Source of the DNA: Anaerolineae bacterium
GTDB taxonomy: Bacteria > Chloroflexota > Anaerolineae > S140-20
Assembly: GCA_027021705.1 (NCBI GenBank)
Contig: JALUTT010000073.1
Location: forward strand, 29,535-93,534
Direction of reading: 5' to 3'
DNA length: 64,000 bases
Shown here: positions 843-62,934 of the stretch, piece after piece
How positions within the stretch are numbered: the first letter of the stretch is position 1
Layout: every line of letters starts with the position of its first letter
The notes under the pieces: generated by a model
The model's database searches: none
What the model was told of the DNA's origin: nothing
What the model saw: only the letters and a program-made list of their open reading frames with translations
Program-made: the position numbers and the translations under genes

Positions 843-972
843 GTATCTATTCAGCCTACCCTCCCTCAGGTCACCGGTCGAGGGCGCTTTCAGCCCCGAT
901 GGGCTAATTGAAACACGGCCTCGCGTCGGAAACGCGCCTAACCTGCGGGAGGGTGAACAGTTGCGACACCCG
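843..972. repeat. Palindromic repeat family B, copy B1 (long stem CCCTCCCtCAGG ... CCTGCGGGAGGG around a ~95-nt loop)
   Basis: Near-identical over the stems and immediate flanks (about 60 of its ~130 bp) to the reverse complement of 27822-27955; the central ~70-nt segment diverges extensively, with both substitutions and indels (several >5-nt mismatched runs). It shares the 12-bp GC-rich inverted stem with the copies at 48480-48615 and 62770-62890. It sits in the intergenic region between the TA operon start and moaA. Confidence 0.6.
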
Positions 973-2272: not shown

Positions 2273-3901
2273 GTGAGGCAGGCAGGACGCAGGCTCTGGG
2301 TGGCGGGGCTGGGGGCGCTGGTGGTGCTGGTGTGGGCCAACCTGCCCTACCTGGTCGGCTACGCCCGCTCCACCCCCGACCTCGCCTTCGGCGGCTTCTT
2401 CATCTTCGAGCAGGACGGCTTCTCCTACCTGGCCAAGATGCGCCAGGGGGCGACCGACGGCTGGGAGTACCGCCTGGCCTACACCTCGGAGGCGTTCGCC
2501 CAACAGGGGGAGGTGATCTTCACCCTCTACTTCGCCCTGGGAAAGCTGGAGCGTCTGTTGAGGGTGCCGGCCATCGCCCTCTACCACGCGGCCCGGCTGG
2601 GGGCCGGCCTCCTGCTCCTGGTCCTGCTCTACCGCTTCGTCGCCCATCCCCGTCTCCGGGATGCCGAAGGCCCCTCGGCGGATGAGACGGCGTGGGCCTA
2701 CGGGCTAATCCTCGTCTCCGGCGGCCTGGGCTGGCTCCTCACGCTGCTGAACCCCCGCTACGTCTCCTTGGAGCTGGTCGCGCCCGACGCCTACATCTTC
2801 TCGATGCTCTACGGCCCGCCCCACGTCCCTCTGGCGATGGCCCTCCTGCTGGCCTTCTGGCTGGTGCTGCTGACCGGCGTCGAAGGGGAGCTCACCTGGA
2901 GGCGGCTCCTGACCCTCAACCTGCTGGCCCTGGGCGCGGTCCTGGCCCGGCCCGCCTACGCCCTGGTCCTCTACCCGCTGCTGGGTCTCTGGTGGCTGGG
3001 GGGATGGCTCCTCCCGGCGCAGGCCCCGGCGGGCGGCCTCGTCTCCGGGAAGGTCCGGGGGGAGGCCCGGCGACCCGACCTGCGCCCGCTCCTGGCCGCC
3101 GTCGCGCCGCTGCCCTACCTGGTCTACTTCTACCGGGCCTTTCAGACCAACCGGGCCTACCGGCTCTGGGCCGCTCAGAACCCCTTCGTCACGCCGGGGG
3201 TGGGGGACCTGCTGGTCGGGTTCGGGCTCCTGCTCTTCCCGGCTTTGCTGACGCTGGCCCGCGAGCGGGGGCGCTGGCACCGTCCCCGCCGGCGGCTCTT
3301 CTTCACCTGGGCGGTGGCCGGGCTGCTCCTGGCCTACGCGCCGGTGCCCGTCAGCCGGCGGCTCCTGGCCGGATGGCAGGTCCCGCTGGCCCTGCTGGCC
3401 GTCCGCACCTTCACCCGCTGGCTCCGGCAGCGCCGGATGCGCCCGCTGCCCTACCTGTTGACCGGGCTGCTCCTCCCCTCGACCCTCCTGGTCATCCTGG
3501 GGGGAACGGCCTTGGTGCTCCAGCGGCCGGCGGAGCTCTTCCAGAGCGCCGACGAGCGGGCGATGCTGGCCTGGCTGGCCGACCACGGGAGCGAGCAGGA
3601 CGTGGTCCTGAGCGCTTGGCGAACGGGGAACCGCCTCCCGGCCTGGACGCCGGTTCGGGTCTACGTGGGGCACCCCATCGAGACCCTGGCCTTCGACGAG
3701 AAGGAGGAGGCCGTGCGCCGCTTCTTCGACCCGACGACGCCGGACCGGTGGCGGCAGAGCTTTCTGCGCCGCTGGCGGATCACCTACGTCGTCCACGGCC
3801 CCTTCGAGCGGGCGCTGGGGGGGTGGTCACCGGAGGATGCGCCCTACCTGGAGCCGGTCTTCGGTCAGGGGGAGTACATCGTCTACCGGGTGCGGGAGTA
3901 G
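2273..3901 (+). CDS. Polytopic integral membrane protein, possible GT-C-type glycosyltransferase or DUF membrane protein
   Basis: ORF of 542 aa with many hydrophobic helices (LGALVVLVWANLPYLVGY..., LLLLVLLYRF..., LLLAFWLVLL...). There is an acidic motif in the first loop (IFEQDGFSY) and a large soluble C-terminal domain. Function not recognisable with confidence. Confidence 0.65.
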   Translation: MRQAGRRLWVAGLGALVVLVWANLPYLVGYARSTPDLAFGGFFIFEQDGFSYLAKMRQGATDGWEYRLAYTSEAFAQQGEVIFTLYFALGKLERLLRVPAIALYHAARLGAGLLLLVLLYRFVAHPRLRDAEGPSADETAWAYGLILVSGGLGWLLTLLNPRYVSLELVAPDAYIFSMLYGPPHVPLAMALLLAFWLVLLTGVEGELTWRRLLTLNLLALGAVLARPAYALVLYPLLGLWWLGGWLLPAQAPAGGLVSGKVRGEARRPDLRPLLAAVAPLPYLVYFYRAFQTNRAYRLWAAQNPFVTPGVGDLLVGFGLLLFPALLTLARERGRWHRPRRRLFFTWAVAGLLLAYAPVPVSRRLLAGWQVPLALLAVRTFTRWLRQRRMRPLPYLLTGLLLPSTLLVILGGTALVLQRPAELFQSADERAMLAWLADHGSEQDVVLSAWRTGNRLPAWTPVRVYVGHPIETLAFDEKEEAVRRFFDPTTPDRWRQSFLRRWRITYVVHGPFERALGGWSPEDAPYLEPVFGQGEYIVYRVRE

Positions 3902-3910
3902 GGGGGTGCT

Positions 3911-4046
3911 CTCGTCAACGAATGTTCAACGAATAAACGAATGGGGCGGTTTGTAGGTCGCTTTGGCGTCCTCCTAGCCGGTTGGTTGGCAGACTGCCGC
4001 TTGGGGGGCTGCTCTCGCCAACGAATGTTCAACAAAGCAGAGAAAG
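3911..4046. repeat. Two ~28-bp direct repeats (GCTCTCGyCAACGAATGTTCAAC), each containing ACGAAT triplet motifs
   Basis: 3911-3950 reads ctcgtcaacgaatgttcaacgaataaacgaatgg and 4016-4040 reads ctcgccaacgaatgttcaac. The ACGAAT x3 arrangement resembles the CACGAAT x3 core of the MITE-like element A. The repeats lie in the intergenic region upstream of pepA. Confidence 0.4.
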
Positions 4047-4057
4047 GAGCGTATGCG

Positions 4058-12269: not shown

Positions 12270-12374
12270 AGCACTCGCCTCTCGTCAGGCACGGGGACGA
12301 GTACAGAGGTCCAGCGGTAAGTCCCTGCCTCAATTGTACTTGCCCCTTTCAAGGGCGTCAAGGCCCCGTCGCCC

Positions 12375-12526
12375 TGTGATTACCCATATCTTTGGAGATA
12401 GGGAGACGAGCCGTCCACGAATGGGACACGAATACACGAATTAAGGACCGCCTCATTCGTGCATTGGTGAGAAATTCGTGGACGGCCTGCTACGGACCAC
12501 TCTCTCGCTCACTTGTGGGTAATCAC
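12375..12526. mobile_element. MITE-like palindromic element A, copy 1 (152 bp; TIR GTGATTACCCA / TGGGTAATCAC)
   Basis: Terminal inverted repeats plus internal inverted repeats (GCCGTCCACGAAT / ATTCGTGGACGGC) and a CACGAAT x3 core. Flanked by a 13-15-bp direct repeat, GCCCCGTCGCCCT(G), at 12363-12376 and 12528-12541, consistent with a target-site duplication. Confidence 0.7.
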
Positions 12527-12550
12527 CGCCCCGTCGCCCTGTCCTACTGC

Positions 12551-13840
12551 CTACCGGACAATGGTCTGCTCCCGGCCCGGGCCGACGCCGATGAGCCGGA
12601 CGGGGACGCCGGTGAGGGCTTCGACCCGCTCGACGTAGCGGCGGGCGGCAGGGGGCAACGCCTCCCAACGCCGGGCCGTCGTCAGGTCCTCCGACCAGCC
12701 GGGTAGCTCCTCGTAGATGGGGCGACAGCGAGCCAGCACGTCGGCCTCGGTGGGGAAATGCTCCAGCCGCTCGCCCCGGTAGTCGTAGGCCACGGCGATC
12801 TTGACCGTCTCGAAGCCGCTCAAGATGTCCAGCTTGGTCAGCGCCAGGCCGGTCAGTCCGTTGACCCGGGCCGCGTAGCGCAGGATCACCGCGTCCAGCC
12901 ACCCGCAGCGGCGGGGCCGGCCCGTCGTCGTGCCGTACTCGTCCCAGGGATTCGCCCCCGTCCCCCGCAGCCGGTCCCCCAACTCGTCCGTCAGTTCGGT
13001 GGGGAAGGGGCCGGCCCCCACCCGGGTGGTGTAGGCTTTGGCGACGCCGATCACCTCTTCGACGTAGCGGGGGCCGAAGCCCAGGCTGGTCAGCGCCCCG
13101 CCGACGGTGGCCGAGGAGCTGGTGACATAAGGATAGGTGCCGTGATCCAGGTCCAGGAGCGTGCCCTGAGCCCCCTCGCACAGGAGGCGTTGCCCGCCGG
13201 CCAGCCGCTCGTTGATGAGCAGGGAGACGTCGGCCAGGTAGGGGGCCAGACGGCGGGCGTAGTCGTGGAACTGGGCGGCGATGGCTTCGGCATCCAGGGC
13301 CGGCTGGCCGTAGACGCCGGTGAGGATGGCGTTCTTGGCCTTCACCGCCTCGTAGACGCGGTCGGCAAACCGCTCCGGGTCCTGCATCATCCCGGCCCGG
13401 AGGCCGGCCCGGGCCGCCTTGTCGGCGTAGGCCGGTCCGATCCCCCGCCGGGTGGTGCCGAGGGCCTTCTTGCCCCGCTGCAACTCCATCGCGCCGTCCA
13501 GGGCGATGTGGTAGGGCAGGATGAGGTGAGCGCCGACGCTGAGCTTCAGCCGGCTGGGGCTGGCGTCCACGCCGCGCTCGGTCAGCCCGTCAATCTCGGC
13601 GATCAGGCGGGCCGGGTTCACGACCATCCCCGCCCCCAGGACGCAAAGGGTGTCAGGGTAGAGGATGCCGGAGGGGATCAAGTGGAGGGCGAAGCGCTCC
13701 CCGCCGACGGTGACGGTGTGGCCGGCGTTGTCGCCGCCGGCGTAGCGGGCCACAATGTCCGCCTGGGCGGCCAGCCAGTCCACCACCCGTCCCTTCCCCT
13801 CATCTCCCCACTGAGTTCCCACCACAATCGTCGCGGTCAT
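12551..13840 (-). CDS. purA: Adenylosuccinate synthetase
   Basis: MTATIVVGTQWGDEGKGRVVDWLA (P-loop), GGDNAGHTV, conserved along the whole length. Start chosen at MTAT (13840) rather than the ORF-track extension. Confidence 0.9.
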   Translation of the reverse strand: MTATIVVGTQWGDEGKGRVVDWLAAQADIVARYAGGDNAGHTVTVGGERFALHLIPSGILYPDTLCVLGAGMVVNPARLIAEIDGLTERGVDASPSRLKLSVGAHLILPYHIALDGAMELQRGKKALGTTRRGIGPAYADKAARAGLRAGMMQDPERFADRVYEAVKAKNAILTGVYGQPALDAEAIAAQFHDYARRLAPYLADVSLLINERLAGGQRLLCEGAQGTLLDLDHGTYPYVTSSSATVGGALTSLGFGPRYVEEVIGVAKAYTTRVGAGPFPTELTDELGDRLRGTGANPWDEYGTTTGRPRRCGWLDAVILRYAARVNGLTGLALTKLDILSGFETVKIAVAYDYRGERLEHFPTEADVLARCRPIYEELPGWSEDLTTARRWEALPPAARRYVERVEALTGVPVRLIGVGPGREQTIVR

Positions 13841-13856
13841 TCTCCTCCCTCCTTCC

Positions 13857-13929
13857 TCCTCACGTATCACGCATCACGCATCACGCATCACGCATCACGC
13901 CTCACGCCTCACGCACCACGCACCACCCC
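13857..13929. repeat. Heptanucleotide tandem array A, (NTCACGY)x~10
   Basis: ctcacgt atcacgc x4 ctcacgc x2 accacgc accacc, directly upstream of the purA start. Same unit as the arrays at 43804-43908 (inverted) and 44371-44497. Confidence 0.8.
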
Positions 13930-13966
13930 AGCACCGCATAGCAGACTGCGGACTCTGGACCGAGCT

Positions 13967-15148
13967 TCACGCCAACATCTCCACCGCCAGCGCTGCGTAG
14001 ACCGACGCCGCCTTGAAGAGGTCTTCCAGCCGGAGCTGTTCGTCGGCGGTGTGAGCGTAGCGCTCCTCTCCCGGCCCAAACCCAACGGTGGGGATGCCGG
14101 CCACGCCCATCGTGTAGGCTCCGTCGGTGGAGAAGGCCCATTGGCCGATGGTGGGACGGTAGCCCAGCGTGTTGCGGATTGTCCGCGCTAACGTTTTGAT
14201 CAGCGGGTGGCCCTCCTCCAGCGCCCAGGCCGGATAGTAGGCCCGCTGCCGGGCTTCGTAGCCGGTGTAGCTGGTGGCCCGGTACTCGGTGACCTCGACC
14301 TCGGCCCGCACCCCCTCCCGCAGGATGATCCCCTGGACCTCGGAGAGGGCCTTGGCCTCCGTCTCGCCCAGGGTCAGCCGGCGGTCAATGATGAAGCTGG
14401 CCCGGTCCGGGATGGCGTTGCGGCTGCTGGCGCTGCTCTCTACGTGGGTCACCGCCAGCGTCCCCCGGCCCAGGAAGGGGTCGTAGCCCAGCTTATCCGC
14501 CAGCAACTCCAGGCCGAAGATGAGACGGGCGGCAGCGTAGATGGCGTTCTCCCCCAGGTCGGGGTTCGAGGCGTGGCAGGAGCGCCCGTGGGTCGTCACC
14601 TGCATCTCCAGCCGGCCCCGGTGGCCCCGGCTGATCTGCAGGTTGGTGGCCTCGCCCAGCACCACCCAGTCGGGCCGCAGCCCTTCCTCCTCGATCAGGA
14701 CCTGCATCGCCAGCCCCTCGCAGGGCTCCTCCTGGACCACGCAGGCGACGACCAGGTCGCCCTTCAGCCGGACGCGGGCCTCGGCCAGCATCTTCACGCC
14801 GTAGATCATCGCCGCGATCGCGCCCTTCATGTCGGCCACGCCTCGCCCGTAGATGATCCCGTCTTCGACCTCGCCGCCGTAGGGGTCCCGTTGCCAGGCC
14901 TCGGGGTCCGAGATGCCCACCGTGTCCATATGGCCGTTGTAGAGCAAGATGGGGCCGCGGCCGCTGCCGTAGCGCCCGATGACGTTGCCGATCCGGTCGG
15001 TGAAGACCTCTCGAAAGCCGACCCGCCGCATCGCCGCCGCAATGCGGATGGCGACGGCCTCCTCCTGGGTGGACGGGCTGGGCGTGCGGATCAGGTCCTG
15101 CAGGAACTCGACCAACTCCTCGCGATCTGAGCGCGATAGGGTGAACAT
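13967..15148 (-). CDS. M20-family metallopeptidase (ArgE/DapE/ACY1-like deacylase)
   Basis: LLYNGHMDTVG, GRGVADMKGAIAAM, dimerisation domain. Start at MFTLSR (15148); the ORF-track 5' extension to 15895 is noncoding/overlapping. Confidence 0.8.
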   Translation of the reverse strand: MFTLSRSDREELVEFLQDLIRTPSPSTQEEAVAIRIAAAMRRVGFREVFTDRIGNVIGRYGSGRGPILLYNGHMDTVGISDPEAWQRDPYGGEVEDGIIYGRGVADMKGAIAAMIYGVKMLAEARVRLKGDLVVACVVQEEPCEGLAMQVLIEEEGLRPDWVVLGEATNLQISRGHRGRLEMQVTTHGRSCHASNPDLGENAIYAAARLIFGLELLADKLGYDPFLGRGTLAVTHVESSASSRNAIPDRASFIIDRRLTLGETEAKALSEVQGIILREGVRAEVEVTEYRATSYTGYEARQRAYYPAWALEEGHPLIKTLARTIRNTLGYRPTIGQWAFSTDGAYTMGVAGIPTVGFGPGEERYAHTADEQLRLEDLFKAASVYAALAVEMLA

Positions 15149-16599: not shown

Positions 16600-17761
16600 C
16601 CTGCAACGCTCGCCGATAGGCCACGACGGTCTGGGAGGCCGTCTGGGCCCAGGTGAAGCGGGCGGCCTGCGCCTGACCCCGCTCTCGCAGGTGGAGGCGC
16701 AGGGCCTCGTCCTTCAGCAGCCGCGCCATCGCCCCCGCCAGCCCCTCCACGTCATCGGGGGGCACGAGGAGGCCGGCCTCGCCCACCACCTCCGGCAGGG
16801 CGCTGCTGCGGGCAGCGATCACCGGGGTGCCACAGGCCATCGCCTCCAGCAGGGGCATGCCGAACCCCTCGTAGAGGGAAGGGTAGACGAAGAAAGTGGC
16901 GGCGCTGTACCAGAGGGGCAACTCCTCGTCGGGCACGAAGCCGGGAAAGCGCACCCGGTCGGAGAGCCCCAGGGCCCGCGCCTGGGCGAAGAGGGGGTCG
17001 TAGTACCAACCCTTCCCACCGGCGATGACCAGCGTGACCTCCTCCTCTGGGTGCTGCTCTCGGAGCCGGGCGAAGGCCCGGAGCAGGGTGGGCAGGTTCT
17101 TGCGGGGCTCCAGCGTGCCCACGAAGAGGATGAAGCGGTCGGGAAGCCCTCTGGCCTGGCGGAAGGCGGCCACCTGGGCCGGCGGGTAGGGGTGGAAGCG
17201 GGTGTGGTCCACGCCGTGGACCACGACATCCACCCGTTCTTCAGGAAAGCCGAGCAGGCGCACCACCTCCGTTCGGGTGTAGTGGGATACGGCGATGATC
17301 CGGCGGGCGCGACGGGCCGAGAGCCGAGTCATCCAGGTCAGGTAGAGCCGGTTGGCCGGGCGGAATCGCTCCGGGAAGCGCAAGAAGCTCAGGTCGTGCA
17401 CCGTCACCACCGTGGGACAGGGACTCCAGAGGGGCGCGACGAAGGCCAGGGCGTGCAACAGATCCACCCTGGCCTGGCGTAGCGCCCACGGTTGCGCCAC
17501 CTGCTCCCATAGGATGCGGACCAGAGGGCGCTCGGTGGGCCAGCGGGTCGCGCGAACGGTCAGGGTGGCCTGCCGACCTGGTCCGCCAGACGGGACAGGC
17601 CGCCCGCGACCGGTGAAGACGGTGTAACGGAAGGTCGGGTCGGCCTGGGGAAGGTGATGCAGCAGATGGTAGATGTAACCGTGAATCCCTGCGCTGCGGT
17701 AGCCGGCCTGGCCGGACAGCAGTTGAGCATTGAGACCCACGTGGCCGCGCATACCCGGCAT
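16592..17761 (-). CDS. Glycosyltransferase family 4 (GT-B)
   Basis: GT4 C-terminal motif YSAATFFVYPSLYEGFGMPLLEAMACGTPVIA; overlaps the downstream sugar-transferase gene by 8 nt. Confidence 0.75.
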   Translation of the reverse strand: MPGMRGHVGLNAQLLSGQAGYRSAGIHGYIYHLLHHLPQADPTFRYTVFTGRGRPVPSGGPGRQATLTVRATRWPTERPLVRILWEQVAQPWALRQARVDLLHALAFVAPLWSPCPTVVTVHDLSFLRFPERFRPANRLYLTWMTRLSARRARRIIAVSHYTRTEVVRLLGFPEERVDVVVHGVDHTRFHPYPPAQVAAFRQARGLPDRFILFVGTLEPRKNLPTLLRAFARLREQHPEEEVTLVIAGGKGWYYDPLFAQARALGLSDRVRFPGFVPDEELPLWYSAATFFVYPSLYEGFGMPLLEAMACGTPVIAARSSALPEVVGEAGLLVPPDDVEGLAGAMARLLKDEALRLHLRERGQAQAARFTWAQTASQTVVAYRRALQDG

Positions 17762-26153: not shown

Positions 26154-26496
26154 CGCTCAACCCTATCCCTTGTTTTGTCCGTGCTGTCTCAAAAGCATTG
26201 ATGAGCTTATGCCGCATTTGCGCAATGATCGGCTCCTCATCTGCTCCAGATCATCGGAGAACACCGCGCCTTTTGGGGGAGGGAGGAGGATGTGGGCAAC
26301 TAAGCTGACGGACAAGGGGCTCTTTCCAGGAATGCCTTCCCGCGCATCCTGGATGGCGCCATCACTCCTGTCATCGGCCATTGTATGACAACTGGTCAGA
26401 AAAGTCAAGGAATTTACGCAACAACACAGTACAAATCCCCCAAGATACGCGATGCGCAATACGTGTCACACAATGCGACGCGACACGATTTCCCCG

Positions 26497-26647
26497 GTGA
26501 TTACCCATATCTTTGGAGATAGGGAAACGAGCCGTCCACGAATGGGGCACGAATACACGAATCAAGGACCGCCTCATTCGTGCATTTGTGAGAAATTCGT
26601 GGACGGCCTGCTACGGACCACTCTCTCGCTCCCTTGTGGGTAATCAC
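26497..26647. mobile_element. MITE-like palindromic element A, copy 2 (151 bp)
   Basis: About 95% identical to copy 1. Flanked by a 9-bp direct repeat CGATTTCCC (26486-26494 and 26650-26658). It lies between the giant gene's upstream leader and the divergent FtsK-like gene. Confidence 0.7.
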
Positions 26648-26751
26648 CGCGATTTCCCTCTTGACACAGAACAAATGTTCTGGTATCATGTAGCCAGCCC
26701 CTTCCACCGCGTGACAGGCAACCCGCCATACGCATCGCCCGAGGTGTTCCG

Positions 26752-27821: not shown

Positions 27822-27955
27822 ATAGGAGGCGTAACTGTTCACCCTCCCGCAGGCTGGGCGCGTTTCCGACGCGAAACCGTGCTTCAAATAGCCCATCGGG
27901 GCTGCAAGCGCCCTCGACCGGTGACCTGCGGGAGGGTAGGCTGAATAGATACGAG
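27822..27955. repeat. Palindromic repeat family B, copy B2 (inverted relative to B1)
   Basis: The reverse complement matches 843-972 closely over the stems and flanks; the central ~70-nt loop shows multiple substitutions and indels. Perfect 12-bp stem CCCTCCCGCAGG / CCTGCGGGAGGG. Confidence 0.6.
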
Positions 27956-27966
27956 GAGGCGGTGCG

Positions 27967-38187: not shown

Positions 38188-38499
38188 CGCACGCACTGAC
38201 TTGACATGATGGATTATGGGTTATCACCGATCTCGTTGACTTGCGCGACACGATTTCGGGTGGGATGCCACAGGGCTCTCGTCATAGCATCATCATAGGT
38301 GTGGTCATAGGTCTCCTCTAGCCTGGAGGTGGCTTGGCAGTCGGCCTGTCGCCTGTCGTTCCCCAGGCGAGGCCGATCTCTGAACTATGTATGCGCAGTT
38401 TCCGGGTTGCTGCCGATCTCCTGGCTGCCAGGCTTCGTTTCGTGTTGGGCCTAGCGCCGGTCAGGGATGGCAATGGTGTCTCCTAGGAGAGGAAGCACG

Positions 38500-43803: not shown

Positions 43804-43908
43804 GTGAGGTGTGAGGTGTAAAACGTAAGGTGTGAAACGTGAAATGTGAAACGTGAAACGTGAGGCGTGAAACGTGAAGCGTGAGGTGTGGAACGTGAAA
43901 CGTAAGGC
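43804..43908. repeat. Heptanucleotide tandem array B, (GTGARRY)x~15; inverted relative to arrays A and C
   Basis: gtgaggt gtgaggt gtaaaac gtaaggt gtgaaac gtgaaat gtgaaac gtgaaac gtgaggc gtgaaac gtgaagc gtgaggt gtggaac gtgaaac gtaaggc. It ends 2 nt before the stop of the four-helix-bundle gene. Confidence 0.8.
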
Positions 43909-43909
43909 G

Positions 43910-44383
43910 TTACTCCAGTCGGTAGGTGATCTCAGCTTCGCGCAAGGGGCGTCCCCGTTGCTGAGGGATCATCGTCAGCAGCAGTCGGATAATCTCGCTG
44001 AGCAGCGTCAGCCGGTGTTCGAGGATCTCATCTCCCAAGACGTAACGGGCTTTGAAGTACCAATCACGGCTCTCGCGGGCCGACCCCAGAGCGTACTCGT
44101 AAAAGCGTGCGCGATCTCTGCCCGTGCCACGCGAATATCCTTCCGCCAGGTTGGCGCTGATGGAGCCCACCGCCCGGTATAGCTGGTCGGCCAAGGCTCT
44201 CGTCCGCCGGTCCCCGATCAGCCGAGTGACGTCCCGCCACCCCAGGTCACCCAGAAACAGGGCCCGCCTGTACGCCTGCATCCTCCAAAGCGAATCTTTC
44301 TTGATCGCTGCCGGCACCTGGGCCTCCCACTCGGCGTATGTTCTCCAAACGCTGTTCACCTCCTCCCTCCTTTCACGCCTCAC
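43910..44383 (-). CDS. Four-helix-bundle protein (TIGR02436 / 23S rRNA-IVS-protein family; Avd-like)
   Basis: Core ...[24 protein letters not shown]...[44 protein letters not shown]... matches the family signature (I/LAEG, ALGS). The annotated GTG start lies inside heptamer array C, so the true start may be an internal codon (e.g. near MQAYRR). Confidence 0.7.
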
Positions 44384-44497
44384 GCCTTACGTTTCACGCT
44401 TCACGTTTCACGCCTCACGCCTCACGCCTTACGTTTCACGCTTCACGTTTCATGCCTCACGCTTCACACCTCACGCCTCACGCTTCACGCCTCACAT
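44371..44497. repeat. Heptanucleotide tandem array C, (YTCACGY)x~18
   Basis: ttcacgc ctcacgc cttacgt ttcacgc ttcacgt ttcacgc ctcacgc ... It spans the intergenic region and overlaps the 5' end of the four-helix-bundle ORF and the last codons of the GT4 gene. Confidence 0.8.
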
Positions 44498-45665
44498 TTT
44501 CCGCCCCCATCTCCCGATAAACCCCTACCAGCTTCTCCTGAGCCATTTGCCAAGTGAACTCCCGGCGCACCCGCTGGTAGGCCGCTTCGGCCAGCTGGTC
44601 GGCCAAGGCCGGGTCGTCCAGGAGGCGGAGCACCACGCGGGCCAGGTCGCTGGGGTCATCGGGGGTGAAGAGGAGGGCATCCACACCCTCCCGCATCAGT
44701 TCGCGCACGACGGGGAGGTTGGCGGCCACCACGGGCCGGCGGCAGGCCATATACTCCAGCAGCTTGATGGGGCTGCACCCCTGGGTGACGTTGCGGTCGT
44801 TGTAGCCCAGCGGAGCCAGGCAGATGGTGGCCCGGTTGATGAGGTCGGGGATCTGATCGGGAGGCAGTGGCCCTTCCAGGCTCACCCAGTCGGCCAGCCC
44901 CTGCTTGCGAATCCGCCGGCGCAGCATCTTGAGGCGGACCTTGCGCCCCCCGCCGACGATGCGCAGCCGGACGGGGCGCTCGGCCAGGATGTGGGGCATC
45001 GCGTCCAGCGCCGTCTCCACCCCTTGCCAGGAGGCCAACGTCCCCACGTAGAGCAGGGTCGGCGGCTCCGTGGGCTCGACGGGCCGGGGGGCGAAGCGGG
45101 TTGGGTCCACGCCGTTGGGGATGACGACGATGCGCTCCGGGGGGATGCCCAGGCTGCGGATGTACTCCCGGGTCACCCGGCTGGGGCAGAGGATCCGGTC
45201 GGCCCGGTGGAGGGTGAAGACCTCCTGCTGGCGCAGCTTCTCCAGGAGAGGCTGGTGGCGCAGGGCCGGGTAGTGGTACTTGAGCTCGATGCTGGGAAGG
45301 CCGTTGACCTCGTAGATCGTCCGGTAGGGGGGGCGCCGTCCATCACCGGCCCGGACGGCCGGCAGCCCGCTCCAGATGGAGCGGAAGTGCACCACGGCGT
45401 AACCGGGGTGGGTCGCCAGATGACGGGCCACCATCTCGGAGAAGGCCATCGCCCGCCGCAGGAAGTTCGTGTCTTGGGAATGGAAGCGCCAGATGCGTGC
45501 GCCTTCGTAGGTCCCTTCGGCAGGAAGGCCAGGCGTGCCGGCCGTCAGGAGATGGACCTCATAGCCGGCCTGAACCAGCCCCCGCACGAAGTAGGTGATG
45601 TGGGTGCTGGCTCCCTTGGGACTGGGCACGACATCGAACGCGGCGTAGAGGACCGTTGGGTTCAT
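44478..45665 (-). CDS. Glycosyltransferase family 4
   Basis: N-terminus MNPTVLYAAFDVVPSPKGASTHI..., C-terminal GT4 region. The last residues (NVRREA*) are encoded by heptamer array C. Confidence 0.8.
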   Translation of the reverse strand: MNPTVLYAAFDVVPSPKGASTHITYFVRGLVQAGYEVHLLTAGTPGLPAEGTYEGARIWRFHSQDTNFLRRAMAFSEMVARHLATHPGYAVVHFRSIWSGLPAVRAGDGRRPPYRTIYEVNGLPSIELKYHYPALRHQPLLEKLRQQEVFTLHRADRILCPSRVTREYIRSLGIPPERIVVIPNGVDPTRFAPRPVEPTEPPTLLYVGTLASWQGVETALDAMPHILAERPVRLRIVGGGRKVRLKMLRRRIRKQGLADWVSLEGPLPPDQIPDLINRATICLAPLGYNDRNVTQGCSPIKLLEYMACRRPVVAANLPVVRELMREGVDALLFTPDDPSDLARVVLRLLDDPALADQLAEAAYQRVRREFTWQMAQEKLVGVYREMGAENVRREA

Positions 45666-45722: not shown

Positions 45723-48395
45723 TCACGGGGCTTCCTCCAGCAGCCCGTAGAGACGGTCCAGGGCGGTGCGCAGGACCGGACGCGGCGGCCATTCCATCAG
45801 GGCCTCCTCCAGGGCGACCAGGGCGTCGGGCAGGGCAGTCCGGTCCTGGTCCATCGCAATGGCCTCTTCCAGGAGGGCCAGCCCCTTCGTCTCCTCCCCC
45901 CGCAGGAGCCAGAAGTAGGCCCGGTAGAACTGGTGCGAGGCCTGACGGGGGCTGGTTCCCCACTCGCGCTCCCCGTGCTCGATGGCCCGCTGGTAGGATT
46001 CCAGGGCTTCGTCCTGACGGCCCGCCTTCTCCAGCACGATCCCCCGGTAGGCCCAGGCCCAGCTCCGGTTGGGGATCAGGCGCAGCACCTGCTCCAGACT
46101 CTCCAGCGCTTCGTCGTAGCGCCCCATCAGGGCCAGCACCCGGCCCCGCCCCTCCCAGGGCCAGTAAGAGTCCGGTTCCAGGTGAAGGCGGTGGTCGAAG
46201 GCGTCCAGGGCCTCCTGCAGGCGGCCGGCCATGCGCAGCGCGTTCCCCAACTGGCTCCAGGCCCATCCCCAAGAGGGGGCGAGTTCGGTCACCCGCTGGA
46301 AAGCCTCGGCCGCTTCGGGATACCGCTTCATCGCCGCCAGGGCTTCCCCTTTGCTGGCCCACACCCAGTCGGCGTCCGGCGTCAGGGCCAGCGCCCGGTC
46401 GAAGGCCTCCAGGGCTTCCTGGTAGCGTCGGGCGAAGCGAAGGGTCTCCCCCAGTTGGGCCCAAGCCCAGGCGTACTGGGGCTTGAGCTCCAGGGCGCGG
46501 TGGAGGGCGTCCAACGCTTCGTCGTAGCGTCCCAATTGCTGGAGGGTGCGCCCCAGGTGGGCCCACCCCCAGGCGTAGTCGGGGAGCAGCTCCAGCGCCC
46601 GCTGAAAGGCGTGGCGGGCGTCGGCCGGCCGATCGGCCAGGCGCAGGGTCTCCCCCAGTTGGGCCCAGGCCCAGCCGTACTCCTCGTCCAGGTGGATGGC
46701 CCGCTGGAAGGCGGCGATGGCCTCATCGAAGCGGCGGAGCTGGAGCAGCGCCTGCCCTTTGCTGGCCCAGGCCCAGGCGTAGTCGGGGTCAATCTCCAGG
46801 GCGCGGTCGAAGGCATCCAGCGCCCCCTCGGGGCGTTCGGAGAGCCGGAGCGCCTCCCCCAGGTGGGCCCAGGCCCATTCATAGGCTTCGTCCAGCTCCA
46901 CAGCCCGTCGAAAGGCGGCGATGGCCTCGTCGAAACGGTCCAGCAGGGCCAGGGTCTCCCCCTTGCTGGCCCAGGCCCAGGCGTAGTCGGGCAGCAGTTC
47001 CAACGCCCGGTTGAAGGCGTCCAGGGCCCTCTCGAGATCGCGGCTCAGCCGGAGGGTCTCCCCCAGTTGGGCCCAGGCCCAGCCGTAGTCGGGGGCGATC
47101 TCCAGGGCCCGCTCCAGAGAGGCACGGGCGGCATCGTAGTAACCCATCCGGCGCTGGAGGGCCCCCTGTCGGGCCCAGGCCCAGGCGTAGTCGGGGGCTG
47201 CGGTGACCGCCCGGTCGAAGGCGGAGAGGGCATCCTCGTAGGCTCCCTGGTCTCGGAGCGTCTCGGCCATCCGTCCCCAGGCCCAGGCGTACTCGGGATC
47301 AAGCCGGACGGCCTGCTGGAAGTCGGCGAGGGCCTCATCGTAGCGTTGCATCTGGTGGAAGGCTTCGCCCCGGCTGGCCCAGGCCCAGGCATCCTCGGGG
47401 TCCGCGTCCAGCACCCGGCTGAGGACGTTGACCGCTTCGGGCAGCCGCTCGGCCAGGCGCAGGGCTTCCCCCAGGTGGGCCAGCGCCCACTGGTAGTCGG
47501 GGTCCAGGGCGACGGCCCGCTCCAGAGCGGAGACCGCCTCGTCGTACCGCTCCAGGTCAATCAGCGTCACCCCCAGGTGGGCCCAGGCCCACTCGTAGTC
47601 CGGGTCCAGGGTCACCGCCCGCCGGAAGGCACGGCGTGCTTTCTTCGCCTGTCCGTGGAGGCGGTAGGCCTCGCCCAGGCTGCCCCAGGCCCAGGCGTAT
47701 TGGGGGTCCAGTTCGACGGCCCGCTTCAGGACGGGGATGGCTTCCTCGAAGCGGTTCAACTGGTTGAGGACCTCTCCCAGCCGGCCCAAGGCCCAACTGT
47801 AGTCGGGGTTGAGGGCTACGGCCTGCTCAAAGGCTTCTCGGGCTTCCTCGTAGTTGCGCTGGAGGCGCAGGACCTCGCCCTTGTGGGCCCATGCCCAGGC
47901 GTACTCGGGGTCCAGGGCCAGGGCCCGATCGAAGGCGGCCAGAGCCTCTTCGGGCTGTCCCGACCGGGCGTGGGTCTCCCCCAAGCTGCCCCAGACCCAC
48001 GCGATGTCGGGCTGCAGGTCAATGGCCTGGTACAGGTCGGCCAGGGCGTGTTCCAGGTGGTTTAGGAGGAGGTAGGTCTCGCCCCGGTGGGCCAGGGCCC
48101 AGGCATAGTCGGGCATCAGGGCCAGGGCCCGGTTGAAGGCGATGAGGGCATCCTCAAGGCGACCCAGGGCCAGCAGGGCCTCGCCCTTGTGGGCCCAGGC
48201 CCAGGCCGACCCTGGTACCAAGGCGATGAGTTCTTCGAAAGTGGACAGGGCGTCTTCCAGGCGTCCCTCTTCTCGCAGCCGGTGTCCCTCTTGGGCCAGA
48301 TAGGCGGCGGTCTCCGGCAGCGGGCCTGCTGACGGCTCCCAACCCGCAGCTTCATCCTCTACGATCCGTCCCTGGTGAGAAGGTTTCTCCGCCAT
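45723..48395 (-). CDS. TPR-repeat protein (about 25 tandem tetratricopeptide repeats)
   Basis: 890 aa of 34-aa repeats with consensus AWAWahkGEaLrllgRyeEAlaafdRAlaLdPdy. Confidence 0.85.
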   Translation of the reverse strand: MAEKPSHQGRIVEDEAAGWEPSAGPLPETAAYLAQEGHRLREEGRLEDALSTFEELIALVPGSAWAWAHKGEALLALGRLEDALIAFNRALALMPDYAWALAHRGETYLLLNHLEHALADLYQAIDLQPDIAWVWGSLGETHARSGQPEEALAAFDRALALDPEYAWAWAHKGEVLRLQRNYEEAREAFEQAVALNPDYSWALGRLGEVLNQLNRFEEAIPVLKRAVELDPQYAWAWGSLGEAYRLHGQAKKARRAFRRAVTLDPDYEWAWAHLGVTLIDLERYDEAVSALERAVALDPDYQWALAHLGEALRLAERLPEAVNVLSRVLDADPEDAWAWASRGEAFHQMQRYDEALADFQQAVRLDPEYAWAWGRMAETLRDQGAYEDALSAFDRAVTAAPDYAWAWARQGALQRRMGYYDAARASLERALEIAPDYGWAWAQLGETLRLSRDLERALDAFNRALELLPDYAWAWASKGETLALLDRFDEAIAAFRRAVELDEAYEWAWAHLGEALRLSERPEGALDAFDRALEIDPDYAWAWASKGQALLQLRRFDEAIAAFQRAIHLDEEYGWAWAQLGETLRLADRPADARHAFQRALELLPDYAWGWAHLGRTLQQLGRYDEALDALHRALELKPQYAWAWAQLGETLRFARRYQEALEAFDRALALTPDADWVWASKGEALAAMKRYPEAAEAFQRVTELAPSWGWAWSQLGNALRMAGRLQEALDAFDHRLHLEPDSYWPWEGRGRVLALMGRYDEALESLEQVLRLIPNRSWAWAYRGIVLEKAGRQDEALESYQRAIEHGEREWGTSPRQASHQFYRAYFWLLRGEETKGLALLEEAIAMDQDRTALPDALVALEEALMEWPPRPVLRTALDRLYGLLEEAP

Positions 48396-48479
48396 TCGCT
48401 TCCACCGCTCCTATCGTCTGACCAAACAACGACTTTCTGAACGGGAAGTGTACCACAAGTTGCACGGTAACCCAAGGCC

Positions 48480-48615
48480 TTTCAGGGCTCCATCCCTCGC
48501 AGTGACCCTCCCGCAGGTGCCCCCCGCAGCCTGAAGCGGTCGTAGGCAGCCTCCGATAAGCCTTGCTATCGCCGGGCACCGCGGGACCTGCGGGAGGGTG
48601 ATGTTGAGGCCCTGG
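48480..48615. repeat. Palindromic repeat family B, copy B3, flanked by a 13-bp direct repeat
   Basis: Stems GACCCTCCCGCAGGTG / ACCTGCGGGAGGGTGA with a ~60-nt divergent loop. Outer TIR-like CAGGGCTC / GAGGCCCTG. Flanking direct repeats CGGTAACCCAAGG at 48465-48477 and 48617-48629, consistent with a target-site duplication. Confidence 0.6.
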
Positions 48616-48640
48616 CGGTAACCCAAGGACCCTGGCCGCT

Positions 48641-55391: not shown

Positions 55392-56492
55392 GTGCGCATC
55401 GGCATAGACGCTCGGCTGCTGGCCTACCGGATGGGGGGGATCAGCCGCTACACCTGGCACCTGATCCAGGGCTTCGCGGCGATGGCGACGCCCCATCAGT
55501 TCGTCGTCCTCCAGAGCCGGAAGCAGCGCTCTTCCCTGGTCGAAGCGCCCCAGGTGCAGACCGTCTCCCTCTGGACCCCTCCCCACCACCGCTGGGAGGG
55601 ATGGGCCCTCTCCCTGGAGCTCTGGCCCCGCCGTCTGCACCTCCTCCACAGCCCCGACTTCATCCCCCCCCGTTACGGCTCCTTCCGGCGGGTCATCACC
55701 GTCCACGACCTGAACTTTCTCTACTACCCCGAGTTCCTCACCGCCGAGAGCGCCCGCTACTACGGCCAGATTGACCGGGCCGTCCGGCAGGCGGACCACA
55801 TCCTGGCCGACTCCCACGCCACCCGGCGGGACCTGATCGAGCGGCTGGGGGTGCCGCCGGAGAAGGTGACGGTCGTCCACCTGGCCGCCGACCCCCGCTG
55901 CCGACCGCTGGCGCCGGCCCAAGCGCGGGCGGTGGCCGACCGCTACGGGCTGCCGGAGCCCTTTCTGCTCTTCGTGGGGACGCTGGAGCCCCGCAAGAAC
56001 GTGCCCACGCTGCTGGAGGCGATCCACCGGCTGCGACAGACCGGCCTGGAGGTGCCCCTGGTCCTGGTGGGCCGGCGGGGCTGGCTCTACGATGAGATCT
56101 TCGCCCGGCTGCAGGCCCTGGGGCTGGAGGGGCAGGTCCGCTTCCTGGAGGGGGTCTCCGACGAGGACCTGGTGGGGCTCTACAACGCGGCCCGCTGTCT
56201 GGTGCTTCCCTCCTTCTACGAGGGGTTCGGGTTGCCGGCCCTGGAGGCGATGGCTTGCGGCACGCCCGTCGTCGTCTCCGACCGGGCCTCGCTGCCCGAG
56301 GTCGTGGGGGAGGCGGGGCTGCTGGTGGACCCGACCTCCCCGGAGGCGCTGGCCGAGGCCATCGGGCGGGTGTGGGAGGACGAGGCGTTGCGCCGGCGGA
56401 TGCGTCGGCAGGGGCTGGCCCAGGCGGCCCGCTTCTCCTGGGAGCGGGTGGTGCGGGAGACGTTGGCCGTCTACGAGGATGTGGGGCGGTAG
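55392..56492 (+). CDS. Glycosyltransferase family 4
   Basis: GTG start 3 nt after the mfd stop. GT4 C-terminal motif RCLVLPSFYEGFGLPALEAMACGTPVVVSD. Confidence 0.8.
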   Translation: MRIGIDARLLAYRMGGISRYTWHLIQGFAAMATPHQFVVLQSRKQRSSLVEAPQVQTVSLWTPPHHRWEGWALSLELWPRRLHLLHSPDFIPPRYGSFRRVITVHDLNFLYYPEFLTAESARYYGQIDRAVRQADHILADSHATRRDLIERLGVPPEKVTVVHLAADPRCRPLAPAQARAVADRYGLPEPFLLFVGTLEPRKNVPTLLEAIHRLRQTGLEVPLVLVGRRGWLYDEIFARLQALGLEGQVRFLEGVSDEDLVGLYNAARCLVLPSFYEGFGLPALEAMACGTPVVVSDRASLPEVVGEAGLLVDPTSPEALAEAIGRVWEDEALRRRMRRQGLAQAARFSWERVVRETLAVYEDVGR

Positions 56493-59296: not shown

Positions 59297-62200
59297 TCAC
59301 CTCTCCTCTCCCGCGCCTGCCTCCCTGTCTTCCGTGCTCCCCTCCCGGCCTGGGGAGACTTTACGGATGGGTATGCGCACGATGAAGGTGCTTCCCTTCC
59401 CGACCTCGCTCTCTACCAGGATGTCCCCCCCCAACCGTCGCATAAACATCCGTGACCACCAGAGGCCGTAGCCCAGTCCTCCCTTCTTCGTTGTGGTCCC
59501 CATACGGAAAATTTCCTCTTGCTGGTCCTTAGGGATACCCGGTCCGGTGTCGGAAACGTAAACGCTCACCCAGTTTTCGTCGGTCTGCTCCGTCCGTATC
59601 CGCAGCGTGCCCTCATCCCCCATCGCCTCCAGCGCGTTGGTGATCAGGTTTAGGAAGACTTCGCTCAGTTGAGGGGTGGCCATCACTGGCGGCAGGTCCT
59701 CGGCGTACTCTTTGATCACGGTGATGCCCGGTGGCATCGAAGGGATCTCGGTCCAGGCCCGGATGATGGCGCTGTTCACCTGGATCGGCTCCAGCGTCAT
59801 CGGCTGGAAGGGGCGGCGGATCCGTCGGGCGATCTCCAGCGTCTGTTCGGCGTTCTCCCGGATGGCCTGGAGCTTGTCCCGCAGGTAGGCGTTGGTCAGG
59901 GTGCCCTGCATCATCTTCAACTCGATCTGCTGGAGCATGGCCCGGATGGCCCCCACGTTGTTGTTGATCCGGTGGACCATGTTGCCGGCGATGTCGGCCA
60001 TCGCCGCGATCTTCTCCGCTTCCATCTGCCGCCGTTGCGACTCCCGCATCGCCTCCAGGTAGCGGGCGTTCTGGATGGCGATGGCGGCCTGGCTCGCCAG
60101 CGCCTCCAGCAGCCGTTGATCGTCCCGAGTGAAGGCACCGGGCTTAGGGCTGCCGATGTTGATGACGCCGATGGGCTCTCCCTGAGGGCCGCCGAGAATG
60201 GGGACCGAAAGGGCTGACCGGGCCTCGGGGATGATCTCTCGATACCAATCGGCCCAGCGCCAGCTTTGCCAGGGGGGACGGGTGACGTCAGGCACGATGG
60301 TGGGCCGCTTCTTCTCGATCAAGCGGGTGACGCCCGTCTCGTCCAGCTTCAGCCGGATGGTGCTCTTGCTCAGCCCCCGACCGACCTTGGAGACCACCTC
60401 ACCGGCCAGCCGGTCCAGGAGCATAATGTTGCCGTAGGGAGCCCCGATGATGTTCAGTGCACCTTCTAGGATCCGGTCCAGCACCCGGTCAATGTCCAGC
60501 GTGGAGGTGATCGCCTTGTCAATCTTCTGCAGTTCTTCCAGTTCCCGAATCTTACGGTGCAGCTCCGCGTTGGCCCGCTCCAGTTCCAGGTTGGCCTGGA
60601 AGAGGTCCTGGTTGAGCTTCTCGAAGAGGCGGGACTTGTCAATGACCAGCGCAGCCTGGTTGGCGAAGATCCGCAGGGTGGTCAGTTCGTCCTCGCTGAA
60701 GGGGTGGGGCTGCCGGAAGTTCACGTAGAGGATGCCTAGGGGGTGGTCGCCCACGGCCAGGTGGAAGCCGGCAAAGGCCCGGATCTGCTCCCGGGCGATG
60801 AAGGGCGTCTCCAGCAGTTCGGGCGCTTCCCGTTCCAGGTCCTCATAGCAGAGGATGCCTTCCTGGCGGACCCGGTCGGCGGGATCGCGGACTGCCGTGC
60901 CCCCTTCCGTCAGCGAGAGGGGATAGCGGGTCCCGTAGGTGGCGACGTTCTGCACGTCGTAGACGTCGCCCCGGCCGGAGACGTAGGGGTAGATAACGGC
61001 ACAGTCGGCCCCCACCACCTCACACGCCCCTTTGACGATCTGCTCCAAGACCCGCTTGGGGTGCTCCGAGACCGCCTGGGTCACCGCCTGGCCCACCTCC
61101 AGGAGCGTTTCCATCTCCTGGATGCGTTTGCGTTCTTCGTCGAAAAGGCGGGCGTTCTCCACGGCGACGGCCACGGAGGCGGCCACCAGCCGCAGCAGGT
61201 CCTCGTCCTCCTGGTCGAACATCCCCCCGATCTTGTTCACCACCTCGATGACGCCGATGACCTCCTTGCGTCCGATCAGGGGGACGCAGAGAAGGGATTT
61301 GGTCTGGAAGCCGGTCATCTGGTCCAGTTGGGGCGAGAAACGCTCGTCCCGCTGCACATCCGGGACCAGCGCGGGCTCGCCCGTCTTCACCACCCAGCCG
61401 GCGATGCCCTCGCCCACGGCCAGTTGGATGTCGGGGCACTGGTTGCCCAGGCCGGGGGAGTGGGCGGCGACCAACTGGAGGACCGGCGGTTCCCCGCCTG
61501 GTTTGGGGGTGGTCAGCCAGATAGAGATCCCCTCGACCGGGAGGATCTCTCGGACGCCCTGGAGCACCCGGTCGAGCACCGCTTCCCGCTCCAACCGGGA
61601 GGTGAGCGCCTCGCTGATCTGGTGGAGTGTCTTGAGGCGCTGGAGGAGACGGGCGTTCTGGATGGCGATCCCCCCCTGGGCGGAGAAGATCTCCAGCACC
61701 CGTCCGTCGGCCTCGGTGAATCCCAGGTTGTCCCGCTTGTTGGAGACCTGGAGCACGCCGATGGGGGAGCCGCCGGCCCGGATGACGGCCAGGATGGTGG
61801 AGCGGACCCCCACCCGGCGGGCCAGGTGATCCAGGCGCATAGCCCGCACCATGGGATTGGTGGAGACGTCGTTGATGATCAACGGAAAGCCGGCCTGCCA
61901 GGCTCGCCAGATCTGGATGTTCCTCCGCAGGGGAATCTGGTAGTCCTGGAGAGCTTCGTCCGGCACCCCGTACCCGGGGGGGTGGTAGACCAGGCGCTCC
62001 TGCTCGGCGTCGTAAAGCAGGATGGCGGACATCTCTGCGTCCAGGAGGGTGGCTGCCTGTTCGTTCAGCTTTCGGTAGATGTCCTCGATGGCCGTTCCCA
62101 GGCTCATCTGGCCCAGGCGCAGGGAGATCTGCTGCAAGCGCGTCAGCTCCTCCACCCGCTGTTCCAGCTCCTCGAAGAAGGCATCCCGCTCCTGGCGCAG

Positions 62201-62614
62201 GCGGGCCTCTCCCAGGACTTTGCGCACGGCATTCAGCAGATGCTCCAGGGATTCGAAGGGTTTTTTGATGTAGTCTCGCACGCCCAGTTGCAGGGCCTGG
62301 ATGGCGATCTCCTCGTTGCCGTAGGCCGTGGTGATGATGGTCGGTGGGGTGAAGCCGTAGCTGCTGAGGGCCTGTAGGAGCGAGATCCCCAGGAGTTTGG
62401 GGCTGCGGTGGGGGGAGGGAATGCTATCGGCGGGACCGGGGGGGATCCGCAAGTCCAGGAGAAGCAAGTCGGGGCGTTCGTGGAGCGCCTTTTCTAGCCC
62501 TTCCCTCATATTGTGCGCGATGACAACTTGATAGCCGTTCTGCTCGAGCCAGAGGCCCACCATACGGGCCTGATCCACCTCATCCTCGACGATCAGAATC
62601 TTCTCACCAGTCAC
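59297..62614 (-). CDS. Hybrid sensor: N-terminal REC + at least 3 GAF domains + HisKA/HATPase_c histidine kinase
   Basis: REC (KILIVEDEVDQARMV...DLLLLDLRIP). Repeated GAF blocks (e.g. ...GVIEVVNK..., ...GVINIGSP...). Kinase H-box MVHRINNNVGAI, N/G boxes LITNALEAMGDEG, SDTGPGIP, GGLGYGLWWS. Confidence 0.85.
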   Translation of the reverse strand: MTGEKILIVEDEVDQARMVGLWLEQNGYQVVIAHNMREGLEKALHERPDLLLLDLRIPPGPADSIPSPHRSPKLLGISLLQALSSYGFTPPTIITTAYGNEEIAIQALQLGVRDYIKKPFESLEHLLNAVRKVLGEARLRQERDAFFEELEQRVEELTRLQQISLRLGQMSLGTAIEDIYRKLNEQAATLLDAEMSAILLYDAEQERLVYHPPGYGVPDEALQDYQIPLRRNIQIWRAWQAGFPLIINDVSTNPMVRAMRLDHLARRVGVRSTILAVIRAGGSPIGVLQVSNKRDNLGFTEADGRVLEIFSAQGGIAIQNARLLQRLKTLHQISEALTSRLEREAVLDRVLQGVREILPVEGISIWLTTPKPGGEPPVLQLVAAHSPGLGNQCPDIQLAVGEGIAGWVVKTGEPALVPDVQRDERFSPQLDQMTGFQTKSLLCVPLIGRKEVIGVIEVVNKIGGMFDQEDEDLLRLVAASVAVAVENARLFDEERKRIQEMETLLEVGQAVTQAVSEHPKRVLEQIVKGACEVVGADCAVIYPYVSGRGDVYDVQNVATYGTRYPLSLTEGGTAVRDPADRVRQEGILCYEDLEREAPELLETPFIAREQIRAFAGFHLAVGDHPLGILYVNFRQPHPFSEDELTTLRIFANQAALVIDKSRLFEKLNQDLFQANLELERANAELHRKIRELEELQKIDKAITSTLDIDRVLDRILEGALNIIGAPYGNIMLLDRLAGEVVSKVGRGLSKSTIRLKLDETGVTRLIEKKRPTIVPDVTRPPWQSWRWADWYREIIPEARSALSVPILGGPQGEPIGVINIGSPKPGAFTRDDQRLLEALASQAAIAIQNARYLEAMRESQRRQMEAEKIAAMADIAGNMVHRINNNVGAIRAMLQQIELKMMQGTLTNAYLRDKLQAIRENAEQTLEIARRIRRPFQPMTLEPIQVNSAIIRAWTEIPSMPPGITVIKEYAEDLPPVMATPQLSEVFLNLITNALEAMGDEGTLRIRTEQTDENWVSVYVSDTGPGIPKDQQEEIFRMGTTTKKGGLGYGLWWSRMFMRRLGGDILVESEVGKGSTFIVRIPIRKVSPGREGSTEDREAGAGEER

Positions 62615-62890: not shown

Positions 62891-62934
62891 TCTCAAGGGG
62901 TAGAGCGCTGAAAAACCCTGGCTGCGATGGCGGT

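Follow-up and report, generated by a model that had tools for sequence, protein, structure and literature searches.

A target duplication of 8 bp, together with ends that start with GTAA, is the signature of the IS66 family. Within the ISBst12 group of this family, ISDge4 of Deinococcus geothermalis has the terminal inverted repeats GTAACTGCTCAGCA and GTGACTACTCAGCA and an 8-bp direct repeat (PMC12898284), and is described as an element with a single transposase of 449 amino acids and that same 8-bp repeat (PMC12898284; PMC8369957). Repeats of 8 bp are also found for other members of the IS66 family (PMC3281130), and active transposition of the ISBst12 group was first reported in 2026 (PMC12898284). 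In the searched literature, no published MITE family of the IS66/ISBst12 type was found, and nothing specific on MITEs of Chloroflexi. The window studied here, i.e., the whole stretch of 64 kb that was analysed, contains four dispersed copies (B1 to B4) of a palindromic repeat, named family B, that share a GC-rich stem. From the comparison of these copies and their relatives with the IS66 family, we propose (probability of about 0.85) that family B consists of small non-coding MITEs that are common in Anaerolineae-type Chloroflexota and are moved by IS66-family (ISBst12-group) transposases.

The copies of the window are 122 to 153 nt long, and the spacing between the two 12-nt arms of the stem, CCCTCCCGCAGG and CCTGCGGGAGGG, is 69-71 nt in all four. 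The conserved stem extends to 14 bp (CCCTCCCGCAGGTT / AACCTGCGGGAGGG), within inverted-repeat arms that are longer still. The four paired stem copies reported by the sequence-only reading were confirmed: allowing at most one mismatch, the stem 12-mer occurs 13 times in the window against 2.4 expected, a number reached in 0/100 shuffles. The copies are also intergenic, as had been stated, all four being located between ORFs that are supported by Pfam hits or by their length. Besides, a lone exact CCCTCCCGCAGG was noticed at 14313-14324, inside a long ORF and with no partner arm; by a rough estimate, chance would give about 0.05 exact 12-mer matches over the window.

B1 (843-964, minus strand, 122 nt) has its stems at 859-870 and 942-953, the left 12-mer carrying one mismatch (CCCTCCCTCAGG). 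Its left side carries the long arm, GTATCTATTCAGCCTA(C), its short arm, TGAACAGTTGC, corresponds to 954-964, and the element is bordered by the 8-mer GACACCCG, which is found at 835-842 and recurs at 965-972 with an 8/8 match. B2 (27831-27952, plus strand, 122 nt), with stems at 27842-27853 and 27925-27936, has the short arm GTAACTGTTCA at 27831-27841 and the long arm TAGGCTGAATAGATAC at 27937-27952. Its target-site duplication, TAGGAGGC at 27823-27830 and GAGGAGGC at 27953-27960, is matched at 7/8 positions (T/GAGGAGGC), or at 8/8 (AGGAGGCG) if the frame is moved by 1 nt. B1 and B2 are in inverted orientation and share 92.7% identity over 123 nt. The gene that starts at 27967 (ORF 27967-28347) has the right duplication of B2 as its Shine-Dalgarno sequence. 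An AGGAGG ribosome-binding site was duplicated by the insertion of B2, and a copy was kept 7 nt upstream of the ATG at 27967 (window 27953-27969), so that the gene downstream of B2 probably stayed translatable despite the insertion of 122 bp at its start. B2, on the plus strand and duplicating the ribosome-binding site of a gene, is a concrete case of a tolerated insertion.

B3 (48473-48615, plus strand; stems 48506-48517 and 48587-48598) and B4 (62768-62920, minus strand; stems 62792-62803 and 62875-62886) are diverged MITE-like copies, inverted relative to each other. The outer arms of B3 are CAAGGCCTTTCAGGGCTCC... and ...GAGGCCCTGG, and the outer inverted repeat of B4 is CAGGCTTTCGGTGCTCT / AGAGCGCTGAAAAACCCTG. 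B3 is flanked by the direct repeat CGGTAACC at 48465-48472 and at 48616-48623 (8/8), the latter followed by CAAGG. These 8 nt are the first of a 13-bp repeat, CGGTAACCCAAGG, from which an insertion had been suspected; the repeat is present at both 48465 and 48616. It most likely consists of an 8-bp duplication, CGGTAACC, and of 5 nt resembling the element's own end. B4 lies between GCTGTGATG (62759-62767) and GCTGCGATG (62921-62929), which agree at 8/9 positions (GCTGYGATG). Within the window, the duplication is perfect at B1 and imperfect at B2 (7/8), B3 (8 within the 13-bp repeat) and B4 (8/9). The sequence-only reading had restricted the likeness in loop and flanks to B1 and B2. This was mistaken, since B3 and B4 share 77.6% identity over 134 nt, loop and flank included, a likeness that was overlooked because the two copies are inverted relative to each other. 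B3 and B4 are an older, decayed pair, with the same inner stem, different outer arms and duplications of 8-9 bp. Just outside the left end of B4, a near-consensus promoter of the sigma-70 type (TTGCCA-17-TATAAT, 11/12; 62722-62750, minus strand) was observed upstream of a GAF/histidine-kinase gene (59297-62614).

Other repeats were observed in the same window. A second dispersed repeat, presumably the "family A" of the sequence-only reading, has three copies (12372-12529, 26493-26650 and 38072-38190) that are 96-98% identical; it combines a palindrome, CCGTCCACGAATG...CATTCGTGGACGG, with repeated CACGAAT/ACGAAT heptamer units, and shorter ACGAAT-rich relatives are located at 3901-3948 and 4004-4051. 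Inverted tandem arrays of heptamers (GTGARRC / TCACGCY) at 43804-43915 and 44343-44523 flank a small gene (ORF 43910-44383, minus strand) whose product matches PF05635, the 23S rRNA intervening-sequence protein. A third heptamer array spans 13830-13954, and other Chloroflexota loci have similar heptamer runs beside the ends of IS and MITEs, e.g., upstream in L243. At 45723-48395 (minus strand), a gene for a TPR protein of 890 amino acids is built of about 20 tandem units of 102 nt (34 amino acids) with 60-75% DNA identity, and a long spurious ORF lies opposite to it. Finally, 16758-17149 and 55947-56332 share two stretches of 93-125 nt that are 73-80% complementary; these regions, 39 kb apart, match the same MAG loci and probably belong to paralogous genes in opposite orientation.

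The genome-wide search for the paired stem that had been proposed from the window alone yielded many more copies. With the pattern CCTCCCGCAGG-N55-85-CCTGCGGGAGG and one genome per species, at least 108 loci were recovered, nearly all from about 37 Chloroflexota MAGs among the matches listed. Carrier MAGs of the distinct relatives number at least 35 (Anaerolineae, Anaerolineales, Thermoflexales/Thermoflexia), many of them with several copies. A few matches to the pattern in Sphingomonas were excluded, as they represent another short palindrome, CCCCTCCCGCCTGCGGGAGGGG. When metagenomes were scanned with a single arm, another 120 loci were added, and 205 distinct elements, falling into many loop subfamilies, were gathered; among the metagenomic copies, L141 has 91% identity with B1 and B2. 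The window itself is a metagenome contig, and its genes show about 70% DNA identity with loci of Anaerolineae MAGs. Relatives are often found at contig ends, as would be expected of repeats, which break assemblies. The elements contain no conserved ORF and their loops are unrelated between subfamilies, hence the absence of coding capacity. When copies were aligned with their flanks, the consensus ends 5'-GTAACTGCTCAC-CCTCCCGCAGGTT...AACCTGCGGGAGG-GT(AGGC)TGAGCAGTTAC-3' were obtained in more than 100 loci, and the arms of the terminal inverted repeats, GTAACTGCTCA(GCCTA)CCCTCCCGCAGGTT with its complement, are at least 23-30 nt long. Two loci deserve a separate mention. At 107-270 of the reverse strand of L146 (about 2442-2605 on the plus strand), a B-type MITE is split by another MITE of the ISBst12 type, which has a different hairpin core (GTGTCATTGCGAGG...CTCGCAATGACAG) and its own terminal repeats. 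At L090 (190-365), a B-type core with outer arms down to 3-4 nt lies between direct repeats of 38 bp (CCATTGGTACAAAAGTCATATTGAATCTCCACCCGTCT); 38 bp being too long for a transposase duplication, another kind of event is suggested, for instance a local duplication.

Direct repeats of 8 bp occur directly outside GTAAC...GTTAC, with a sequence that differs at every locus (e.g., gtgaggta, gatttgtc, aatgaaag, ccagtaat and ccaaggag). A perfect 8-bp flanking repeat was present in 59/202 elements, all 59 sequences being different, against a mean of 2.5 and a maximum of 6 when the right flanks were permuted among elements. Likewise, exact repeats of at least 8 nt were counted in 63/199 elements versus 4.9 in the control, i.e., an excess of about 13-fold, and were predominantly positioned at the GTAAC...GTTAC boundaries. 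An empty site was provided by a related contig pair, in which L124 has the uninterrupted target AGATATTT and L150 has a copy of 122 nt between two AGATTTTT repeats.

The termini of B1 and B2 read GTAWCT.TTCA(GCC) and match the terminal inverted repeats of the ISBst12 group. Indeed, the first 14 nt of B1 are GTATCTATTCAGCC, and an ISGka4-like element of the IS66 family on the Geobacillus plasmid pHTA426 has the ends GTATCTATTCAGCC... and ...GGCTGAATAGTTAC, its other end being also given as GTAACTATTCAGCC and its duplication being GACGAGTT; the identity between this IS end and the long arm of B1/B2 is 14/14. The family B ends, GTAACTGCTCAGCC and GTATCTATTCAGCC, begin with a GTAA-type sequence, as do those of the ISBst12 group, whose terminal inverted repeats measure about 14-20 nt, and agree with those of ISDge4, of the pHTA426 IS and of seven metagenomic IS. 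In these seven ISBst12-like IS, carried by Anaerolineae- and Ardenticatenales-type contigs, the ends are GTAACTRCTCAG(C/G)C. The transposases of ISBst12-like IS contain the domains PF20042, PF13005 and PF03050, and intact genes for an ISBst12-type transposase are present at L232 and L244. At L140, a fragment of an ISBst12-like transposase is accompanied by an IS end located 16 bp from a B-type MITE; this transposase has 1261 homologues at E<=1e-20, most of them on short contigs, and the two with an organism name come from Anaerolineaceae and Ardenticatenales MAGs. Because their ends and their 8-bp duplication match those of ISBst12-group IS, B1 and B2 are, on the evidence of their sequence, MITEs of the ISBst12 type with ISBst12-group ends. 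For family B, the features observed comprise inverted-repeat ends, duplicated target sites, dispersal in many copies, one empty site and termini identical to those of autonomous ISBst12-type IS. The view of the copies as dispersed, inserted repeats of a mobile type is upheld by the duplications, the multicopy spread and the empty site.

An autonomous parent already carrying the stem was searched for as well. By tblastn, the 64-kb window yielded no gene for an IS66/ISBst12-type transposase. The searches of the window, of about 2.4 Mb of related loci, of viral contigs and of plasmids revealed no IS with the full arm, in which CCCTCCCGCAGG follows the IS-type end. In the at least 108 genome loci, every orphan stem and every long-range pair proved to be a chance match or a decayed copy. 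The related loci scanned contained 0 pairs of GTAA...TTAC located 0.6-4 kb apart with 8-bp duplications, the viral-contig scan returned 0 stem-bearing IS, plasmid blastn gave noise only, and each of the 15 "solo" ends of the metagenome scan belonged to a degenerate or truncated MITE. The IS ends read for homologues of the L140 transposase lacked the stem. Only the outer 14 nt or so are shared with the MITE by the eight ISBst12-type IS that were sampled, or nine if the published ISDge4 is counted. The similarity ends after about 14-17 nt, and CCCTCCCGCAGG is absent from every sampled ISBst12-type IS.

According to the MITE explanation, the outer 11-17 nt (GTAACTGCTCA(GCCTA)C and variants) would be the ends recognised and cleaved by the transposase, a staggered cleavage of the target would result in the 8-bp duplication, and an ISBst12-type transposase would ensure the mobilisation in trans. 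The 12-bp stem is the inner part of the long inverted arms, directly abutting the IS-type end, and the "loop" of about 66-70 nt is a non-conserved filler. An element of 120 bp is presumably too short for duplex looping, and a strong fold-back near the ends could help to bring them together. Our preferred guess is that the inner stem would allow the short element to fold back as a cruciform or as a single-strand hairpin, placing the ends side by side for synapsis. Alternatively, the stem could be a site for a sequence-specific accessory factor. Successful cores may have spread among co-resident MITE families by recombination.

In this otherwise ordinary mobile DNA, the inner stem of 12-14 bp is unusually conserved. 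Its conservation exceeds that of the outer ends, which, like the loop, are much more variable; the length of the loop peaks sharply at 70 nt and its sequence is not conserved. Among elements ascertained via one arm, the other arm was a perfect 12-mer in 79/123 and had one mismatch in 19/123, the stem conservation being partly built in by stem-based ascertainment and only the one-arm estimate of 79/123 being unbiased. The stem pair is also present inside shells with unrelated outer inverted repeats (TAGGGCTTTCTCAAAGT, GGCTACCTGACAG, CTCACTACCCGACAT, GGGTGCATTTCA and CCAATACCCGTGAA). The CAGGG... arms of B3 and B4 represent one more stem-carrying shell, giving at least six unrelated shells in all. 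The duplications of the shells with unrelated termini measure 9-12 bp, mostly 10 bp, versus 8 bp for the ISBst12 type, and a given shell is for the most part restricted to particular MAGs. The shells recur with other cores too: the TAGGGCTTTC (class II) shell has another core at L153, and ISBst12-type ends surround other hairpin cores at L146, L183, L189, L035, L008, L015, L030 and L041, with perfect 8-bp duplications. One chimera (L066_1211) has one arm of each kind. A literature search with the stem sequence returned unrelated hits only. A simple origin as a "deleted IS" does not explain the presence of the stem in shells with unrelated termini and duplications of about 10 bp, although an unsampled parental IS already bearing the stem would remove the puzzle. 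As far as the sequences tell, the family looks modular, with interchangeable transposase-specific ends around a hairpin core.

A refinement of the MITE explanation, rather than a replacement, can be put forward tentatively from this material. In this refinement, the 14-bp stem with its loop of about 70 nt would be an independent conserved module, acquired or exchanged by different MITE shells, and the stem the selected unit; it could be a candidate hairpin for the binding of a host factor or accessory protein, or an aid to fold-back. The recurrence of one stem pair in at least six shells with unrelated outer repeats, the 9-12-bp rather than 8-bp duplications of those shells, their near restriction to particular MAGs, their recurrence with other cores (L153; L146, L183, L189, L035 and L008), the chimera with one arm per kind, and a loop constrained in length (mode of 70 nt) and free in sequence all speak for such a module. 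However, the conservation of the stem is in part a product of ascertainment by the stem itself. Moreover, the variant arms of L199, L229 and L153 have no compensating change on the partner arm, which resembles decay and not structural selection, and the same pattern could arise by ordinary recombination among MITEs that share a genome. With similar reserve, one may suppose, as a doubtful though possible extension, that the stem CCCTCCCGCAGGTT/AACCTGCGGGAGGG was coupled in different Anaerolineae lineages to ends belonging to several transposon families that are unrelated to one another (with 8-bp and about 10-bp duplications), and that it either persisted by "switching" transposases or was kept through a sequence-specific factor or a need for fold-back that makes very short elements transposable.

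It is very unlikely that a function as structured small RNA or cis-regulatory RNA hairpin (terminator, attenuator or mRNA stabiliser) accounts for the conservation. Because their arms are inverted, all four window copies are predicted to fold into very stable hairpins (-51 to -78 kcal/mol), the strongest of the window being B3 (-77.6 kcal/mol, z = -3.9). B3 and B4 are located between same-strand genes, and other genomes contain short derivatives that have lost the loop and precede T-runs (e.g., L025 6987), as an RNA function would suggest. However, no Rfam family was matched at the gathering threshold or at E<=1, and the covariance term of RNAalifold was about 0 for the two loop subfamilies with most members (40 and 30). 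The predicted loop pairs are altered on one side or broken, the loops of different subfamilies are unrelated, and both orientations relative to the flanking genes occur in the window. The role of terminator or attenuator that had been envisaged for B3 and B4 was not sustained: there is no U-tract after any arm of the copies, nor after either arm in the consensus, and the terminator scan showed no terminator-like site at B3 or B4. A polar effect of the strong hairpin on read-through transcripts may occur.

The sequence-only reading had preferred REP/BIME-like elements, or hairpins recognised by IS200/IS605-RAYT. Dispersal by a RAYT or IS200/IS605 Y1 transposase now appears highly improbable, even though family B shares with REP/BIME the character of GC-rich dispersed extragenic palindromes with a conserved stem, has divergent loops and an intergenic siting, and has a GTAG adjoining one arm. 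This GTAG lies 3' of the right arm, where it is part of the IS-type end and not a 5' tag. An element of about 120 nt with a 70-nt loop also differs from REPs, which are 20-40 nt long (PMC3733652). REPs with their RAYT have a 5' GTAG or CGTC tag and rely on a Y1 transposase, and they lack both terminal inverted repeats and target duplications; family B departs from them on each count, and has instead IS66/ISBst12-type terminal inverted repeats and 8-bp duplications of non-conserved target sequence. To our knowledge, HUH/Y1 transposition makes no target-site duplications. The association with RAYT genes expected from a REP origin was not observed either: tblastn with E. coli RayT as the only seed, a search of limited sensitivity, returned nothing in the window and a single match (L038) in about 1.8 Mb of related DNA. 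This RAYT-like gene (L038 1319-1780, minus strand) is flanked by its own inverted, GTAG-tagged REPs (L038 1179-1849), CTACAAGACCTCGGAGGTCTT at 1179-1199 and AAGACCTCGGAGGTCTTGTAG at 1829-1849, which correspond to CTAC-AAGACCTCGGAGGTCTT and its inverse with GTAG and are unrelated to family B. It forms a textbook REP/RAYT unit in an Anaerolineae MAG, with a B-type MITE about 800 bp away.

That the conserved inverted repeats are sites at which a site-specific invertase flips the loop is hardly credible: a conserved inverted repeat does flank variable DNA of similar length at many loci, as in invertons, but the orientation of the loop is constant relative to the asymmetric outer arms within each subfamily (fixed in nearly all 40 members of cluster 0, in all 30 of cluster 1 and in clusters 2-5), and no recombinase gene adjoins any window copy. 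Integron attC sites were rejected, the copies being outside arrays and devoid of R'/R'' cores, as were hammerhead or other ribozymes, whose core motifs are absent and for which Rfam was negative.

As a set of MITEs of the IS66/ISBst12 type, family B supplies a record of non-autonomous partners for the ISBst12 group of IS66, a group that has been little studied. Family B accounts for many contig breaks and "palindromes" in Anaerolineae/Chloroflexota MAGs, and its recognition prevents its copies from being mistaken for regulatory RNAs or REPs. If the sharing of the stem by shells with different ends is real, it offers a tractable case of needs beyond transposase-binding ends, i.e., of what a very short element requires to move or to be retained. 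In eukaryotes, CORE-SINEs and V-SINEs are non-autonomous elements with a conserved central domain and differing ends and partners; since these are retroelements, with no homology to family B and an unrelated mechanism, the likeness is an analogy only. The ISBst12 group (ISBst12, ISDge4 and ISGka4-like elements) is closer: it has in common with family B the termini GTAACTRCTCAGCC (13-14/14 identical), the 8-bp target-site duplication and an occurrence in thermophile and Chloroflexota-type genomes. It differs in that its IS are about 1.5 kb long and carry a transposase, whereas family B elements measure 120-150 bp, have no transposase gene, and possess directly inside their ends a GC stem of 12-14 bp that no sampled ISBst12-type IS has. 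In their general organisation, the family B elements resemble the Correia/NEMIS elements of Neisseria, ERIC/IRU, RUP and the Nezha MITEs, all of which are small, non-coding, intergenic and present in many copies, with terminal inverted repeats, target duplications and long hairpins if transcribed. Unlike those MITEs, family B is related to the IS66/ISBst12 type of transposase, has loops that are hypervariable between subfamilies, and shares its inner stem with MITE shells of other termini.
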